Source: Patescibacteria group bacterium (lineage in GTDB: Bacteria; Patescibacteriota; Patescibacteriia; Patescibacteriales; UBA12465). From it: DNA of 64,000 nucleotides. Where the stretch lies: assembly GCA_034002925.1 (NCBI GenBank), contig JAVEZP010000001.1, positions 711 to 64,710 of the forward strand. Reading direction: 5' to 3'. This document shows, piece by piece, positions 47,910 to 55,389 of the stretch (within the stretch, counting starts at the first letter, position 1; every line of letters starts with the position of its first letter). Below the pieces are notes generated by a model. The model saw only the letters and a list, made by a program, of their open reading frames with translations. It did not search any database and had not been told where the DNA came from. The position numbers were made by a program, and so were the translations under genes.

Positions 47910-49757
47910 TTATTCAGGTTGACGAGAAAAATCAATCACCTCATCTTCAGTCATGTTAATTTCTGAATTTGATTTTAAAGTTGAATTTTTTATCCTATTA
48001 TCTTTCTCTGGTCTACCCTTAAAATCCACAGGTTTTACTGTGTTTAAATCAGATAAAGACAGAGGCTTCACAGGAGAGGCGGCAAGATTTTGTAATTCTT
48101 TAGCTTTAGCTGCTTTACGACTATCTGCTTCATTCTTTTTTTCTTGACGTTTAATGGATAAACACTCTTTGCAGAAAACCGGACGCACACCATCGGGAAT
48201 AAAATTGATAGTTGTGCTCTGTCCACAACGAGAACATTTGGTAGAATAAGGAGAATTTGTTGTTTGACTAAATTCCTTTTTAGAAGGCTCTTTAGGAATA
48301 GAGTTATTTTTTATAGATTGAACAACAACATCATGCTTTTTTTCTGATTGAATGACTACCGGGTTAGAAATAGTTTGCTTAGCAATGGCCTTAATTATTT
48401 CATTTCTATTATTAACAGAATTAAAATTTTTATTATTATTAATTCTTGTTGGCGCTTGTTTCAAAGGAGGATTTTCATCTTGTGCTTCGTGCCAACGTAG
48501 AATCTTCTCTTCAACTTCAGAACGAATGGTAGCATATTTTTCTCGAGAATAAGCAACAACTTTGTCAACATTATTAGTCTTCTCTTCTTCGGTGAGTGGC
48601 GGTAAACCTCTAGCTGAAAATGGCGCTGAAGCTACTCCATCGATCATTAATTTTAGATACATTTCATATTTTGGAAGGTTCACCAAATCTTCTTCGGTAA
48701 ACACTGGAGCAAATTCTTTAGCTAACTCCTCTGCATCAGTTGCTCCCACTCGAAAAGAAACCATAGTGCCCACATTGCCAAACACAGCTGGTTTTACCTT
48801 TTCACTTAATTGCTCAATATATTGATGAGCTAGAATCAAGCTCAAGCGATATTTACGTGCTTCAGAGAGAATATTAGCAAAACTGTCAGTCGAAAAATTT
48901 TGAAATTCATCAATATAAAGATAAAAATCTTTACGATCTTTTTCAGGCATATCAACTCGACTCATGGCTGCTAACTGAATTTTAGTAATCATCATCGCAC
49001 CCAGTAAAGCCGAGTTATCTTCTCCAATTCTTCCCTTACTTAAATTCATGATCAAGATTTTACCCTCATCCATTATTTCTCGAATATTAATAGTTGATTT
49101 CACTTGACCAATAATATTACGCATTAAAGAACTGGAAAGAAATTGTCCAACTTTATTCTGAATTGGTGACACCGCCTCAGAAGCAAATTTATCAGCATAA
49201 GAAGCAAATTCTTTTTCCCAGAAAGCCTTTACCACCGGATCTTTAATATTAGCCACCACTCTTTTACGATATGATTTATCAGATAACATTCTCACTACTC
49301 CTAAAATAGTAGATCCAGGAAAATCTAAAATAGCTAAAATGGCATTACGTAAGATATATTCCAAACGAGGTCCCCAAGAATCAGCCCACAATTTTTGAAA
49401 AACACCTAAAAGACCGGAAGCTACTAAATGACGTAAATGAGGCTCAACTTGCTCCAAAACATTAAAAGCAATCGGATAATCCATATCAGCCGGATTAAAA
49501 TAAACTACGTCATTTATTCTATCTGAAGGAATATATTCAATGATTTTTTCCGCTAGATCGCCATGCGGATCAACGACAGCAATCCCATGGCCAGCCCTAA
49601 TATCGCCCACAATCATGTTTTCCTGAATAGTGGACTTACCCATACCGGTTTTTCCAATCAAATACATGTGTCGACGACGATCATCGGCTTTGATACCAAA
49701 CTTTTTAAACTGATTACGGAAAGTTGTTTGAGCAAAAACTGCAATATCTTCATTCAT
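47910..49757 (-). CDS. TraD/VirD4-like (type IV coupling-protein family) ATPase with a C-terminal CxxC-x17-CxxC zinc ribbon
   Basis: Walker A IGKTGMGKST, HGIAVVDPHGDL, Walker B YLYIDEFQNF, LILAHQY. The C-terminal CSRCGQSTTINFIPDGVRPVFCKEC is the same ribbon type as 40841-41356. No N-terminal TM. Confidence 0.7.
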   Translation of the reverse strand: MNEDIAVFAQTTFRNQFKKFGIKADDRRRHMYLIGKTGMGKSTIQENMIVGDIRAGHGIAVVDPHGDLAEKIIEYIPSDRINDVVYFNPADMDYPIAFNVLEQVEPHLRHLVASGLLGVFQKLWADSWGPRLEYILRNAILAILDFPGSTILGVVRMLSDKSYRKRVVANIKDPVVKAFWEKEFASYADKFASEAVSPIQNKVGQFLSSSLMRNIIGQVKSTINIREIMDEGKILIMNLSKGRIGEDNSALLGAMMITKIQLAAMSRVDMPEKDRKDFYLYIDEFQNFSTDSFANILSEARKYRLSLILAHQYIEQLSEKVKPAVFGNVGTMVSFRVGATDAEELAKEFAPVFTEEDLVNLPKYEMYLKLMIDGVASAPFSARGLPPLTEEEKTNNVDKVVAYSREKYATIRSEVEEKILRWHEAQDENPPLKQAPTRINNNKNFNSVNNRNEIIKAIAKQTISNPVVIQSEKKHDVVVQSIKNNSIPKEPSKKEFSQTTNSPYSTKCSRCGQSTTINFIPDGVRPVFCKECLSIKRQEKKNEADSRKAAKAKELQNLAASPVKPLSLSDLNTVKPVDFKGRPEKDNRIKNSTLKSNSEINMTEDEVIDFSRQPE

Positions 49758-49762
49758 AATGA

Positions 49763-50056
49763 TTATTGGATCATATTAGCACTTAATATAGATAATATTT
49801 TTTGATAAGCCTCTCTTACAAGTGGTGGTAAATAAATTAAACCAATTGTTAGTGGAATAATAATTATTATTAACTTTAACCAAGCAAAAATCTTTTGCCA
49901 AGCAACGTAAGTATTAATATGATTCACCATGGTCTTAATTTCTTTCATGTCCTGAGCGTTATTCTCCAATAAGGTTTTTAACTCTGCCACGTCAGTTGCA
50001 ATGTCTTGTGAAACCATAGATTCGTCATCTATGTCTGAAGATTTTTCGTTACTCAT
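49763..50056 (-). CDS. Small tail-anchored hypothetical protein
   Basis: Acidic N-terminus, a helical middle, and a C-terminal TM (WLKLIIIIIPLTIGLIYL). Confidence 0.4.
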   Translation of the reverse strand: MSNEKSSDIDDESMVSQDIATDVAELKTLLENNAQDMKEIKTMVNHINTYVAWQKIFAWLKLIIIIIPLTIGLIYLPPLVREAYQKILSILSANMIQ

Positions 50057-50066
50057 ATAATTTTAA

Positions 50067-50804
50067 TTAAATTCTAGCCTGACAACGCTCTACATAAGAG
50101 CTGCCTAGAGCAGCTAGATCTTTTAATTCTTGGTCTTTAAATGTTTCTAAATTCTGAAATTCTGGATTAACTAATTCTGCATCTGGTTTAAACTTCTGTA
50201 AATACCATAAACGCGCGCCCTTAATCCATTCTCCCATTTTTTTAATATCTTCTTGATTATGTAAAGTTGGCACTAAAGTACTTCTAAATTCATAAGCAAC
50301 TGGACTAGACATTATCATTTTAACACTTTTTTGTAAATTCTCTAAATTTACTTTTGCCCCCACCACTTCTTCATAACGATCAAGAGGGGCTTTAATATCC
50401 ATAGCAATATAATCAATTAATTTATCTTCAATTAATTTAGCTAACATTACTGGATTTGTCCCATTAGTATCTAGTTTAACTACATAATCCATCGCTTTTA
50501 TTTTAGCAATAAATTCAGGTAAATCCGGATGCAAGGTTGGCTCTCCGCCGCTAATTACCACGCCATCTATTTTACCCTTTCTCTCTTGAAGAAATAAAAA
50601 AAGATCCTCCTCTTTGACTAAAGGATGACCTTTTTTATTATTTTCTCCCGTCGGCGACGTTGTTTCAATACGAGGCCAGACAAGCATGGGATTATAGCAA
50701 TAATGACAACGAAAATTACAACCTTGAGTAAAGACAATTGTTGCCAAATTGTCAGGAAAATCTAAAAGAGTTAATTTTTCTAAACCACCAATAATCATAT
50801 ACAA
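50067..50804 (-). CDS. nrdG: Anaerobic ribonucleotide reductase activating protein (radical SAM)
   Basis: GCNFRCHYCYNP; GVVISGGEPT. Confidence 0.88.
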   Translation of the reverse strand: MYMIIGGLEKLTLLDFPDNLATIVFTQGCNFRCHYCYNPMLVWPRIETTSPTGENNKKGHPLVKEEDLFLFLQERKGKIDGVVISGGEPTLHPDLPEFIAKIKAMDYVVKLDTNGTNPVMLAKLIEDKLIDYIAMDIKAPLDRYEEVVGAKVNLENLQKSVKMIMSSPVAYEFRSTLVPTLHNQEDIKKMGEWIKGARLWYLQKFKPDAELVNPEFQNLETFKDQELKDLAALGSSYVERCQARI

Positions 50805-50863
50805 GGATAAGCGCCGCCGGGAATGGGGCAGCGGCTCTTCCCTGCGACCCTTAAATTAATTTA

Positions 50864-51031
50864 TTAATCAGAACACTCCACTTTAAAAGTCTTACGATCT
50901 TTATATTCTGAGGATTTGCCTGGGTTATAATTTTTAACCGGAGTATACCAACCGACTACTCGGCTATAGATAATACACTCTTGGCGTTGAGTTGAAATAG
51001 GGCTCATATGTTTATCTCTTTCTCCAGACAT
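50864..51031 (-). CDS. Stand-alone NrdD C-terminal glycyl-radical domain (55 aa)
   Basis: Not in the ORF track. My translation: MSGERDKHMSPISTQRQECIIYSRVVGWYTPVKNYNPGKSSEYKDRKTFKVECSD. YSRVVGWY...N.GK..EY.DRK matches the conserved class III RNR C-terminus (R-V-x-G-Y glycyl-radical motif). Confidence 0.7.
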   Translation of the reverse strand: MSGERDKHMSPISTQRQECIIYSRVVGWYTPVKNYNPGKSSEYKDRKTFKVECSD

Positions 51032-51086
51032 AGATTTGTTAATCTAATATCTTTTTGAAAATAAATTAAAATAAATAAATAAATAA

Positions 51087-53138
51087 TTAATTAGTAGAAC
51101 AACGTTCTGCTTGCATGGTCGCACTATTATAACCCATCTCCTCATCACACTTCGGACAATATTTATGCTCACCAGCCAAATAACCATGTTTAGGACAAAT
51201 CGAAAAAGTAGGAGTAATAGTAAAATACGGTAAGCGATAGTTTTCAATAATACGTCTAGCTAGTTTTTTTGCAGCATTACCATCAGTTAATCTTTCACCT
51301 AAATAACCATGCAAAACGGTGCCTCCGGTATATTTAATTTGCAATTCATCTTGTAAATCTAAAGCCGCAAAAATATCTTCCGAAAAACTTACATGTAAAT
51401 GAGTAGAATTAGTATAATAAGGAGGAATGCCATTTTTAGCATCTTCAGTGTTAGCAAAAATCATCTCAGGATAAGTCTCTAAATCTTTTTTAGCAAAACG
51501 ATACGTACAACCTTCACCTGGTGTCGCTTCTAAATTATAAAGATTATTAGTTTCATTTTGATAATCCATTAACTTTTCCCTCATCGCATCCATCACCTCT
51601 AAAGCAAAAGCATGTCCCTCGGGACTAGTTAAATCTTTCCCTAAAAAGTTTAATAAAGATTCATTCATGCCATTAATACCAATGGTATTAAAGTGGTTTT
51701 GCCAATAAGTACCAAAGCGCGCCTTAATATCTGCTAAATAATGTTTAGAATAAGGATACAGACCGCCTTCAGAGAACTTTTCAATTACTTTGCGTTTAAT
51801 TTCTAAACTTTCTTTAGCTAAATCCATTAATTGATAGAGACGCTCAAAATACTCTTCTTTATTCTTTGATAGATAACCAATTCTTGGTAAATTAATTGTC
51901 ACCACACCTAGACTGCCAGTTAAAGGATTGGCGCCGAATAAGCCCCCTCCGCGTTTTCTTAATTCGCGATTATCTAAACGTAAACGACAACACATAGAAC
52001 GCGCATCATCTCTGTCCATATCAGAGTTAACAAAATTAGAAAAATAAGGAATACCATATTTAGCAGTCATTTCCCACATTGGTTTTAAAGATTCTCTGTC
52101 CCAATCAAATTGCTTATCAATGGTGTAAGTGGGAATAGGAAAGCCAAACATTCTACCAGTAGCATCGCCTTCTAGCATCACTTCCGCAAAAGCTTGATTA
52201 AACATATCCATCTCTTCTTGAAAATCTTTATACTGTTCAGGCATTATTTCGCCACCAATAATAACATTTTCTTCTCCCACTAATTTAGAAGGCGTCACAT
52301 CTAAAGTAATGTTAGTAAAAGGGGTTTGAAAACCGACTCTAGTTGGAACATTTAGATTAAACATGAATTCTTGCAAACCCTGTTTTACTTCTTTATAGCT
52401 TAATTTATCATAACGAATAAAAGGAGCTAAATAAGTATCAAAATTAGCAAAAGCTTGAGCACCAGCTGCCTCCCCTTGCATAGTGTAAAAGAAATTAACA
52501 ATTTGGCCTAAAGCACTACGAAAATGCTTAGGAGCTTTACTCTGAATCTTTTCCGAAACGCCACCAAAACCTTTAATTAATAAATCTTTTAAATCCCAAC
52601 CACAACAATAAGGAGCTAATAAACCTAAATCATGAATATGAATATCGCCTTTAATATGAGCATCACGAATAGATTCTGGATATAATTTATTTAACCAATA
52701 TCGAGCGGAAATAGCCGAAGCAATATAATTATTCAAACCCTGAACAGAAAAGCTCATGTTACTATTTTCATTCAAACGCCAATCGGCTCTGCCTAAATAA
52801 TCTTCCATTAATTTTTCATCAGAAGTAGCTTTATTTAATTCGCGCAATTGTCTTCTTTGATCACGATACAAAATGTAATTTTTAGCAGTTTTAATTTGTT
52901 TGTTTTCAATTAACACTTCTTCTACCACATCTTGCACTTCCTCTACTGCCGGAATGCTGTTTTTATGAAATTTAGCATTGATTTTTAAGACCACCTCATC
53001 GCTCAATTTTTGAGCCAAAGATTCATCATCAATATCAACTGACAAAGCCGCCTTATAAATAGCGTTTTTAATTTTTTCTTGACTAAAATCAAGGATGTCT
53101 CCGGATCTCTTCCGGATTTTGGTGATTTTCTCTGACAT
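51087..53138 (-). CDS. nrdD: Anaerobic ribonucleoside-triphosphate reductase, large piece lacking the glycyl-radical tail
   Basis: N-terminal ATP-cone (ITKIRKRSGDILDFSQEKI), active-site loop ARSMCCRLRLD, C-terminal Zn-ribbon CPKHG...YCPKCDEE, then a stop. Start moved to MSEKITK (53138). Confidence 0.9.
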   Translation of the reverse strand: MSEKITKIRKRSGDILDFSQEKIKNAIYKAALSVDIDDESLAQKLSDEVVLKINAKFHKNSIPAVEEVQDVVEEVLIENKQIKTAKNYILYRDQRRQLRELNKATSDEKLMEDYLGRADWRLNENSNMSFSVQGLNNYIASAISARYWLNKLYPESIRDAHIKGDIHIHDLGLLAPYCCGWDLKDLLIKGFGGVSEKIQSKAPKHFRSALGQIVNFFYTMQGEAAGAQAFANFDTYLAPFIRYDKLSYKEVKQGLQEFMFNLNVPTRVGFQTPFTNITLDVTPSKLVGEENVIIGGEIMPEQYKDFQEEMDMFNQAFAEVMLEGDATGRMFGFPIPTYTIDKQFDWDRESLKPMWEMTAKYGIPYFSNFVNSDMDRDDARSMCCRLRLDNRELRKRGGGLFGANPLTGSLGVVTINLPRIGYLSKNKEEYFERLYQLMDLAKESLEIKRKVIEKFSEGGLYPYSKHYLADIKARFGTYWQNHFNTIGINGMNESLLNFLGKDLTSPEGHAFALEVMDAMREKLMDYQNETNNLYNLEATPGEGCTYRFAKKDLETYPEMIFANTEDAKNGIPPYYTNSTHLHVSFSEDIFAALDLQDELQIKYTGGTVLHGYLGERLTDGNAAKKLARRIIENYRLPYFTITPTFSICPKHGYLAGEHKYCPKCDEEMGYNSATMQAERCSTN

Positions 53139-53219
53139 GTTTTTAATTACGATCGCGAAATTCAAGATCTAAAAGCTCCTCCGTCTTTTAGCTCTTAAAC
53201 TGCGCCATCGTTTTTTATG

Positions 53220-53690
53220 TTAATTTATTTTTGTCTTTTTCACCTTAATCAGCTTATTCAACTCTCGACGAAACTCATTAGCATCTTTGAATGATTCATA
53301 AACTGAAGCATAACGGATATAAGCAACTGGATCAGTTTTCTTTAAATGCTTCATTACTATCTGACCAACTTGTAAAGAGGTAACTTCTGTTTGTCTCAAC
53401 TTTTGCAAATCTCGCTCAATACCATGAATGATTTGCTTAAACTTATCTTCTGTAACAGGTCTTTTCTCTAAAGATTTACGCAAACCGCTCATTAATTTTT
53501 CTCGATTATATGATTCACGACGACCGTCACGCTTTACAATCATTAAATCTAAGATTTCTATCTCTTCATAAGTAGAAAAACGGAAAGAACACTTTAAACA
53601 TTCACGTCTGCGTCTAATAGAAAGGCCATCAGGAGCAACTCGAGAATCAACTACTTTGGTATCATTATAGTAGCAAACTGGACATTTCAT
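53220..53690 (-). CDS. nrdR: Transcriptional repressor NrdR
   Basis: MKCPVCYYNDTKVVDSR...CLKC zinc ribbon plus an ATP-cone. Confidence 0.93.
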   Translation of the reverse strand: MKCPVCYYNDTKVVDSRVAPDGLSIRRRRECLKCSFRFSTYEEIEILDLMIVKRDGRRESYNREKLMSGLRKSLEKRPVTEDKFKQIIHGIERDLQKLRQTEVTSLQVGQIVMKHLKKTDPVAYIRYASVYESFKDANEFRRELNKLIKVKKTKIN

Positions 53691-53751: not shown

Positions 53752-53998
53752 CTTAGCTCTATTATAGCAAAATAAAAAAGAGGGGTCAAAATCAGCCAAT
53801 ATTCATACAAAATTTAAACAATTACCGTCTTTTTTAAATTAGCTGTGGATAAGTATTTAAAAAATGAGACCAACATTGATCCCATTTATATAAAAATTGA
53901 TATAAGAGTAATGAATAGGGGTATAAATTCAGATTTATACTTTTTTTATCATTTTTATGAACTTCGTAAATATCTTGAATCACAACAAAGTGTTGCGC

Positions 53999-54193
53999 TT
54001 ACTTATTGAACTTAGGATTTTCAAGATTTCTCATGTCCCAGCCCAAAAATTCAAATAAAGGTTCAATAAATTCATTTCTAGTCTGAGCTTCATTGTATGA
54101 TTTTACCGTTCTGGTCTCAACAAGATTTTGATATTTTTCAACTAATTTTGCTATTTGTTTTTTAGCTTCTGTCTTATTAATCATATATTCCAA
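53999..54193 (-). pseudogene. N-terminal remnant of a type I/IIG restriction-modification-type enzyme
   Basis: SYNEAQTRNEFIEPLFEFLGWD is the characteristic N-terminal motif of these enzymes. The ORF stops after 64 aa. About 300 bp of non-coding sequence follows, with only a weak in-frame continuation. Confidence 0.55.
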
Positions 54194-55389
54194 GGATAAA
54201 TATAACCAAGATTATTTTCATAACCCTCTAACCCAACGACAAAATATTTATCTAATTGATAGTTTTCAATAAAATAATTAAGAGCTACTAATTTTGTACG
54301 ATGAAAATTCATCTTCACTTCTACCGGAAGAATCTTATTTTTATCTTTCACAATAAAATCAATTTCTTTTTTATCTTTAGTGCGCCAATAATAAATATTA
54401 TCTTGACCATATTTTTTCACTAATTCTGAGAATATACTAGTTTCAAAAACATTGCCAATAATTTCTTTTTGCAAACTTTTCAACCATAACATTTGCATTA
54501 AACCCGAATCATAAAAAAATATTTTTGGAGTTTTTGACAGCTCACTTCTTATATTATTATTATATGGTCGCACCAATTTAATAACATAAGTTTGTTCAAG
54601 AATAAATAAATATTTTTCAACTGTTGGTATAGACAATTTACAAGTATTAGCTAACTCTTTAAAATTAACTAACTGACCACTTTGAGCAGCTAATATCTCT
54701 AGTAATTTATTCAAGCTATCTACATTATCAATATTAGCTAACTCTTTTATGTCTTTTCTTAAATAAGTGTCAATAATTTGCTGTAGTCTTTTTTCTTTTA
54801 GTTCCACTTCATCTGTTAATGCTACTTTGGGATAAGCACCAAATAACACAAATTCTTTAAATAAAGATTTTAATTCCTCAATTTTCTTGCTTGTAGTTTT
54901 TAACTCTGGATTAAAATAAATACCTCGAAATAATAAATATTCTTCAAATGAAAGATTAGTTATCTCAAAATTTATAGTTCTTCCCACTAATGAATCCTTG
55001 AACTTACTTTTGATTGCAAAACTAGAAGAACCCGAAACAATTAATTTAATATTTTTATGATGATCAGCCATCAATTTTAAAAATTCAGAAGGATTATCTA
55101 AATATTGAATCTCATCAATAAAAACAAAAGTCTTTTTGTCATTATCAGGAGCATGTCCTTCTTCTCGCAAATGACCAATAAACTCATCTACACCTGTATC
55201 TAAAATACGCTTATATCTAGAATCTTCTAAATCAATATAATAAACGTCTTTTTTTTGATCTTCTAAATATTCTTGCAACCACAACAAAATATGTGTTTTG
55301 CCGACTTGTCTAGCACCATGTAACACAATGATTTCTTCTAAATCAATAAATTTAAGAATATCTTCAGTTATTTTTCTTTTATATATCAT
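54181..55389 (-). CDS. AAA-type ATPase with a DUF4143-like C-terminal domain
   Basis: Walker A GARQVGKTH, Walker B FVFIDEIQ. C-terminal part YYWRTKDKKEIDFIV...PVEVK is restriction-endonuclease-like, typical of the AAA_14 + DUF4143 architecture. Confidence 0.75.
   Translation of the reverse strand: MIYKRKITEDILKFIDLEEIIVLHGARQVGKTHILLWLQEYLEDQKKDVYYIDLEDSRYKRILDTGVDEFIGHLREEGHAPDNDKKTFVFIDEIQYLDNPSEFLKLMADHHKNIKLIVSGSSSFAIKSKFKDSLVGRTINFEITNLSFEEYLLFRGIYFNPELKTTSKKIEELKSLFKEFVLFGAYPKVALTDEVELKEKRLQQIIDTYLRKDIKELANIDNVDSLNKLLEILAAQSGQLVNFKELANTCKLSIPTVEKYLFILEQTYVIKLVRPYNNNIRSELSKTPKIFFYDSGLMQMLWLKSLQKEIIGNVFETSIFSELVKKYGQDNIYYWRTKDKKEIDFIVKDKNKILPVEVKMNFHRTKLVALNYFIENYQLDKYFVVGLEGYENNLGYIYPWNI

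Follow-up and report, generated by a model that had tools for sequence, protein, structure and literature searches.

To our knowledge, the literature describes glycyl-radical enzymes as one-chain proteins in which the C-terminal radical domain has to swing clear of the barrel to reach the activase, and a scan of the literature found nothing contradicting this description. In the canonical class III (anaerobic) ribonucleotide reductase NrdD, which works with NrdG in phage T4, E. coli, Thermotoga maritima and Prevotella copri, one chain carries in order an ATP-cone, the barrel, the finger-loop cysteines, a zinc ribbon and the glycyl-radical loop. Here, we analysed the nrd locus in a 64,000-nucleotide (nt) stretch of contig JAVEZP010000001.1 (assembly GCA_034002925.1) from a Patescibacteria group bacterium, hereafter called the window, whose positions serve as coordinates throughout. 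The locus matches the profiles of the canonical system (PF13597, TIGR02487 and NF006126), keeps its domain order and has an adjacent NrdG2-type activase and NrdR. Different from canonical NrdD, the chain in the window is interrupted past the zinc ribbon and ahead of the radical loop, this loop lies on a separate protein of ~47 amino acids (aa) with W instead of Y after the glycine, and the large chain ends in a new tail of ~19 aa. We consider it very probable that this locus encodes a genuine two-polypeptide class III ribonucleotide reductase.

The small stand-alone glycyl-radical proteins GrcA/YfiD and T4 Y06I/vs.6 are activated by radical-SAM enzymes and complement a large barrel in trans (PMC8683613; PMC1524935). 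The small protein of the window is likewise a stand-alone carrier of a glycyl-radical loop, and the likeness to GrcA/YfiD drawn by an earlier sequence-only reading of this DNA holds as a concept. It fails in the particulars, however. While GrcA is ~127 aa long, carries a Gly_radical domain of the pyruvate formate-lyase (PFL) type and rescues a PFL with its own radical domain only after oxygen damage, the small protein here (47-55 aa as an open reading frame, ORF) is of the NrdD type, family PF13597, and its partner never has a radical domain. With no radical domain on its partner, the small protein would be an obligate part and not a spare one. Glycyl-radical enzymes are known to be cleaved by oxygen at the glycine (PMC13450708), and the rescue of PFL by GrcA rests on this cleavage (PMC8683613). 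The nearest architectural precedent is the split class II reductase NrdJa+NrdJb of Pseudomonas aeruginosa, in which a C-terminal functional domain is encoded by a separate neighbouring gene throughout a whole subclass (PMC5704485; PMC9669993). That class is B12-dependent, though, and the separated part is a cysteine-rich re-reduction domain of 150-220 aa, not the radical-bearing element.

The genes of the window's locus all lie on the minus strand in the order nrdR, nrdD-large, small ORF and nrdG, with the following features:

53761..53789, minus strand: promoter-like site upstream of nrdR, TTGACC-17 nt-TATAAT with TG; top match of the scan (11/12 positions), a consensus match only
53220..53690, minus strand: nrdR, transcriptional repressor of ribonucleotide reductase genes, 156 aa (Pfam Zn_ribbon_NrdR and ATP-cone)
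51087..53138, minus strand: nrdD-large, 683 aa, with ATP-cone, class III barrel, finger loop SMCCRL, zinc ribbon CPKH...CPKC and 19-residue tail (PF13597, NF006126)
51008..51086, minus strand: non-coding spacer between nrdD-large and the small gene, 55 nt up to the first ATG and 79 nt up to the conserved ATG
50864..51031, minus strand: gene of the putative small glycyl-radical subunit, 55 aa from the first ATG (PF13597 positions 530-562)
50812..50855, minus strand: GC-rich hairpin separating the small gene from nrdG (14-sequence alignment with compensatory changes)
50067..50798, minus strand: nrdG, radical-SAM activase, 243 aa (TIGR02495 NrdG2, E 3.6e-60; Pfam Radical_SAM)

The exact protein of nrdD-large is deposited at NCBI (MDX9778672.1, Patescibacteria group bacterium), and an alternative start, a TTG at 53165 upstream of the ATG at 53138, would extend it to 692 aa.

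A single NrdD profile is divided over the two ORFs. nrdD-large matches positions 1-530 of the 562 positions of Pfam NRDD (PF13597) with an E value of 6.6e-184, and the small ORF, which has no other Pfam match, covers the last ~33 positions (530-562), glycyl-radical loop included, with an E value of 2.3e-6 and 27.0 bits against a gathering score of 26.2. NCBIfam is concordant, nrdD-large scoring 1028.7 bits with NF006126 (cut-off 548) and 523 bits with TIGR02487 (cut-off 326), and in both databases the division falls exactly at the boundary between zinc ribbon and radical loop. The large protein has the barrel of the curated class III models, the finger-loop cysteines and the C-terminal zinc ribbon, and an NrdG2-type radical-SAM activase is encoded directly downstream, as in all loci fetched from relatives (see below). 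The finger-loop motif SMCCRL (C271, C272, R273 and L274 in A3) is invariant in the alignment of split and fused relatives, and the thiyl-radical cysteine within it is assigned by homology only. Judged by these sequence features, the system departs from a class III reductase in only one of the respects tested: the glycyl-radical motif is not on the catalytic chain, which stops 19 residues past CPKC.

The sequence-only reading had the large gene ending right after its zinc ribbon, followed by a 55-nt AT-rich spacer, and both statements were borne out: the protein ends ...YCPKCDEEMGYNSATMQAERCSTN-TAA with the stop codon at 51089..51087, and the gap to the first ATG of the small ORF spans 51086..51032. 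The 55-aa ORF that it described is present at 51031..50864 and translates as MSGERDKHMSPISTQRQECIIYSRVVGWYTPVKNYNPGKSSEYKDRKTFKVECSD, but the conserved start is the second ATG, at 51007, which gives 47 aa. In an alignment of 50 homologues, three residues are each conserved in at least 90%, namely the Met of this codon (MSP...), the Cys in RQEC and the Gly in YSRVVGW, and the W after the Gly is invariant. The glycyl-radical motif is there as had been said, with the radical glycine codon GGT at 50953..50951, but it reads RVVGW and not RVxGY. Nor is the ORF unannotated: public gene callers call it, and mini-ORFs of this kind already stand in public databases, where some of the homologues bear the name 'anaerobic ribonucleoside-triphosphate reductase'.

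The fused relatives nearest in sequence (57-61% identity) have CPKC-TIKQPCE-VYSRVVGY at this place (...CPKC-TIKQPCE-VYSRVVGYLRPV...), and the MSPIQTQRQEC-IVYSRVVGW of the small ORF aligns onto this stretch. Because the first residues of the small ORF correspond to the linker of the fused enzymes, the break lies just after the zinc ribbon, with nothing missing or duplicated, and the ~19-residue tail of nrdD-large (DEE[IM]GY...) has no counterpart in fused enzymes. A short duplication at the break (MQAERC vs TQRQEC, with overlapping NF006126 positions 648-662) was also considered and was dropped, since the fused relatives show a native linker and an add-on tail. Contiguous relatives have 6-8 residues between CPxC and (V)YSR, not the 10-25 estimated in the sequence-only reading, and the extra material in the window therefore amounts to ~150 nt instead of the ~100 nt proposed.

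A stop codon and a frame change inside a normally single gene could also mark a gene that is disrupted and decaying, or a split produced by an assembly or base-calling error, both of which had been listed as explanations. Conservation contradicts both. At least 22 independently assembled contigs (JGI, ENA and Logan), from different samples and assemblers, carry the identical 55-aa ORF, always between a 683/692-aa NrdD and nrdG. The initial search returned 49 clusters of stand-alone 40-85-aa homologues, and a scan of one genome per species matched 204 genomes, 80 of which, labelled mostly Ca. Falkowbacteria, Patescibacteria or Parcubacteria, were fetched for analysis. The gene is split in all 80, with a stop codon shortly upstream of the conserved MSP start, which answers the earlier question of whether relatives share the split, and the radical domain is absent from the large subunit in 78/78 species with a recovered nrdD 3' end. 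The small ORF is under purifying selection, with a median proportion of non-synonymous differences (pN) of 0.065 against a synonymous one (pS) of 0.78 and a ratio of non-synonymous to synonymous rates (dN/dS) of ~0.04 over 81 sequences and 42 codons; it varies mainly at third positions (non-consensus fractions of 0.06, 0.03 and 0.38 at codon positions 1, 2 and 3). The large ORF, for its part, reaches 1028 bits against a curated equivalog model and keeps invariant catalytic motifs in the alignment. We find decay or error hardly conceivable as the origin of this split.

The arrangement is also syntenic. nrdR, nrdD-large, the small ORF and nrdG follow each other in all 73 loci in which the three flanking genes were found, and in three more distant relatives as well, and in every relative fetched the small gene is followed by nrdG. 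Together with the uniform split, the purifying selection and mini-genes that elsewhere lie away from nrdD (see below), this synteny supports the genuine two-piece enzyme that the sequence-only reading had offered as one of its explanations.

Forms without a radical domain extend beyond these genomes. Among the 150 best representatives of the 50%-identity clusters of the NrdD subfamily, 67 are fused chains and another 66 stop shortly past the zinc ribbon without a radical loop, although a few of the latter may be truncations at contig ends; the tails of these 66 are diverse and include a CPYPH type. A profile search with the mini-protein retrieved 5167 database clusters (E up to 0.001), and the top 120 of these all measure 43-69 aa. 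On a rough neighbour-joining tree (257 residues), forms without the radical domain fall into several clades interspersed with fused forms, and these mixed clades suggest more than one fission in the subfamily. Two further features of the subfamily were observed in passing. Very many of its NrdD genes carry inteins, 1-3 per gene (L051, L056, L064, L099 and L106; P0051-P0071; other representatives), giving products of up to 1000-1900 aa with Intein_splicing and LAGLIDADG matches, in which the query is matched in 2-5 separate stretches. In P0123 (694 aa), the C-terminus NYSKTVPSF replaces the expected VYSRVVGY and has no glycine, and the finger-loop region has diverged as well, so that this protein may be a non-radical or inactive NrdD relative.

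In other lineages whose nrdD has no radical domain, phage contigs among them, the mini-gene is not always next to nrdD. It lies directly downstream of nrdD in loci L100, L103 and L105, 3 kb downstream in L106 and 2.5 kb upstream of an intein-bearing nrdD in L099, and it follows nrdG in L097 and in L102, which comes from a 135-kb IMG/VR viral genome. Among deposited phage genomes, the phage-type mini-protein gave two weak matches only. The archaeal virus ANMV-1 (KP703175.1) encodes, at 3210-3644 of L101, a stand-alone 144-aa protein composed of a zinc ribbon and an NrdD-type radical loop (CEMYSRIVGYLRPVNQWNKGK), with no NrdD barrel gene annotated within 3.5 kb on either side; the virus may use this protein as a spare part for the NrdD of its host.

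These positions bear on whether recoding joins the two ORFs into one product, whether by ribosomal bypassing as in T4 gene 60, by readthrough with a frameshift or by RNA or protein splicing. Gene 60 and the window have in common that two coding segments of one functional unit are set apart by a stop codon and a ~50-nt gap; moreover, the stop of the window directly follows AAT, the gap of ~50-80 nt resembles that of gene 60, and an AAC stands in the frame of the small ORF just upstream of its ATG. Nothing else that favours recoding came to light. A gene-60-like bypass with AAT-TAA as take-off and AAC as landing site was accordingly considered, but was dropped once the variable gaps of the relatives were compared. 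In the 79 loci compared, 18-184 nt lie between the nrdD stop and the conserved ATG; this spacer follows TAA, TAG or TGA, occurs with frame offsets of 0, 1 and 2 and is not conserved in sequence, and no matched take-off and landing codons are found. Unlike gene 60, then, the family conserves neither a take-off/landing pair nor gap length nor frame, whereas the Met start of the small ORF is conserved, some spacers bear promoter-like elements and some mini-genes are not adjacent at all. An interrupting intron or intein fits no better, since an 18-nt spacer could not accommodate a group I intron, a split intein would need more than the 19-aa tail and the ~10-aa lead, and an Rfam scan of 50600..51300 with E up to 10 gave chance-level matches only, with no family for the spacer or the hairpin. 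As mini-genes of other lineages lie upstream of nrdD or beyond intervening genes, bypassing, frameshifting and splicing are ruled out as a general mechanism, and we regard recoding at this locus as very unlikely.

The spacers of the relatives carry a signal of a different kind. The pattern TTG[TAC][AT][AT]-N17-TATAAT matches 49 times in the 6.2 kb of spacer from 78 relatives, compared to once in the other 591 kb of the same loci. The near-consensus form, TTGTAA, 17 nt and TATAAT, is nearly confined to the spacer between nrdD-large and the small gene (L012-L080) and is absent from the window. Between the -10 hexamer and the ATG lie either 9-21 nt or 44-79 nt, so that the elements form two groups. 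The shorter distances suggest transcripts with almost no leader; in the longer group, about half of the cases, the leader always starts, ~6 nt after the -10 hexamer, with a hairpin of 35-45 nt whose sequence is variable.

We modelled the core of the large protein joined to the small protein with AlphaFold, using an alignment of the window sequence and database proteins (fused, radical-domain-less and mini-protein). The model has a mean predicted local distance difference test score (pLDDT) of 91.7 and a predicted template modelling score (pTM) of 0.91. Scores are ~90 for the radical hairpin (model residues 583-594) and the helix after it, and confidence drops to 53-58 only at the junction, that is, in the tail of the large protein and the first ~9 residues of the small one. 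Compared with the solved NrdD structures of T. maritima, P. copri and T4, the model gives template modelling (TM) scores of 0.66-0.76. When the joined pieces were predicted without an alignment, pLDDT was 33.5, and the small ORF had no match among sequences of solved structures even at E 10. As modelled, the two pieces sum to one normal NrdD broken in a flexible linker.

It could still be that the small protein does not belong to the large one next to it, serving instead as a spare part or decoy for another full-length NrdD, or that the large protein has a radical-free role. Autonomous glycyl-radical proteins are known for pyruvate formate-lyase in the form of GrcA/YfiD (PMC8683613), the stand-alone module of ANMV-1 has no annotated barrel gene nearby, and, as the analysis covered nrd loci, a second nrdD may lie elsewhere in these genomes. 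On the other hand, the radical-less barrel, the mini-gene and nrdG co-occur tightly, both in the 73 complete loci and in six other lineages examined, the large protein shows conserved finger-loop cysteines and a conserved zinc ribbon, and the two pieces add up to one complete NrdD without overlap. We judge a non-subunit role improbable.

For the two-polypeptide enzyme, we propose the following mechanism. NrdD-large (683 aa) would supply the ATP-cone, the barrel with the cysteine finger loop and the zinc ribbon, and the separately translated protein of ~47 aa would supply the two elements found at the end of an ordinary one-chain NrdD, the glycyl-radical loop (YSRVVGW) and the C-terminal wrap. 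In the manner of the fused domain, the small protein would insert its beta-hairpin into the barrel of its large partner, placing the glycine next to the finger-loop cysteine. The radical would be generated on the small protein by the adjacent NrdG, and catalysis would thereafter proceed as in ordinary NrdD. In most relatives, the small gene and nrdG stand behind a promoter-like element of their own, an arrangement that fits a re-arming module. More tentatively, a free radical-bearing peptide might be directly accessible to the activase, and a peptide of ~5 kDa might be replaced after oxygen cleavage at the glycine while the 78-kDa subunit is kept.

Carried further, this would make the ~5-kDa radical peptide a freely exchangeable, consumable cofactor, co-transcribed with the activase from an internal promoter, activated off the enzyme and swapped after oxygen cleavage, so that the 78-kDa subunit survives oxygen. 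The architecture would then have arisen several times, in candidate-phyla bacteria and phages, as a repeated solution to oxygen stress or to the problem of activase access, and would offer a natural minimal substrate for glycyl-radical activases. We hold this extended proposal to be possible but rather doubtful.

Several points weigh against a two-subunit enzyme of this kind. The case for it is built on sequence and models, and the exchange of the small protein after oxygen damage is our conjecture. The AlphaFold model is an artificial fusion informed by fused homologues and thus shows compatibility, not binding. The survey covered nrdD loci, and a second full-length nrdD or another reductase may lie elsewhere in these genomes. 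In L104, nrdD has no radical domain and no mini-gene was found within 5 kb, on a scaffold that has a gap. Finally, the spacer of the window gave no strong promoter match and lacks the TTG[TAC][AT][AT]-N17-TATAAT element, and its Shine-Dalgarno (SD)-like GGAGAAAGAG at 51025..51016 is rather far from the conserved ATG at 51007; the fold of this spacer is no different from that of shuffled sequences (z -0.54). Since the spacer is without a promoter element, an SD-like site is present and a strong promoter-like site lies upstream of nrdR, the small gene in the window probably shares a transcript with nrdD and is translated from its own ATG. The site at 53761..53789 is the likely operon promoter of the window's nrd genes.

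No description of a split class III reductase was found in the full-text literature, subscription-only papers aside, including a 2026 review of glycyl-radical enzymes and family-wide reductase phylogenies. The two-gene NrdD is real, conserved and widespread, visible in public data and apparently undiscussed. A natural, separate radical domain of 47 residues would suit the study of radical installation, active-site delivery and the handling of oxygen damage. For annotation, about half of the close NrdD cluster representatives have no radical loop and could pass for broken genes when reductases are scored in candidate-phyla genomes and phages. In evolutionary terms, a class III case joins the known split class II reductases (NrdJa/b).

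Downstream of the small gene, the gap to nrdG is GC-rich and 65 nt long. It contains the hairpin at 50812-50855, a GC-rich element of ~45 nt in an AT-rich genome that occurs only in the subclade of the window (L011, L013-L015, L017-L019, L023, L024, L026, L029, L030, L063 and L069). In the 14 sequences, compensatory changes affect 8 of 13 pairs, in the outer stem, and the core GC.GGG...TCCCGGC is invariant; the loop holds a conserved GGCCGTT for which an alternative pairing with the CGGC of the stem is possible. The hairpin appeared terminator-like in the scan, and the window copy has a fold z of -2.4. In most other relatives, 4-18 nt separate the small gene from nrdG, and a few subclades have different inserts of 80-97 nt.

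nrdG is always followed by a small ORF, of 97 aa in the window (49763-50056, minus strand) and 92-99 aa in relatives, which has no Pfam match and a hydrophobic C-terminal stretch. The next gene in most loci examined encodes a TrwB/TraG-like ATPase with a C-terminal zinc finger (47910-49757, minus strand, in the window), and other genes take its place in one locus (L095/L096). On the other side, the interval between ftsZ and nrdR contains an AAA_14/DUF4143 ATPase gene (402 aa) and a 61-64-aa ORF (53999-55389, minus strand). Among contigs sharing the identical small ORF, this insert is present in L002-L004 and absent in L001 and L006; the ATPase gene and the 61-64-aa ORF are a strain-variable insertion.

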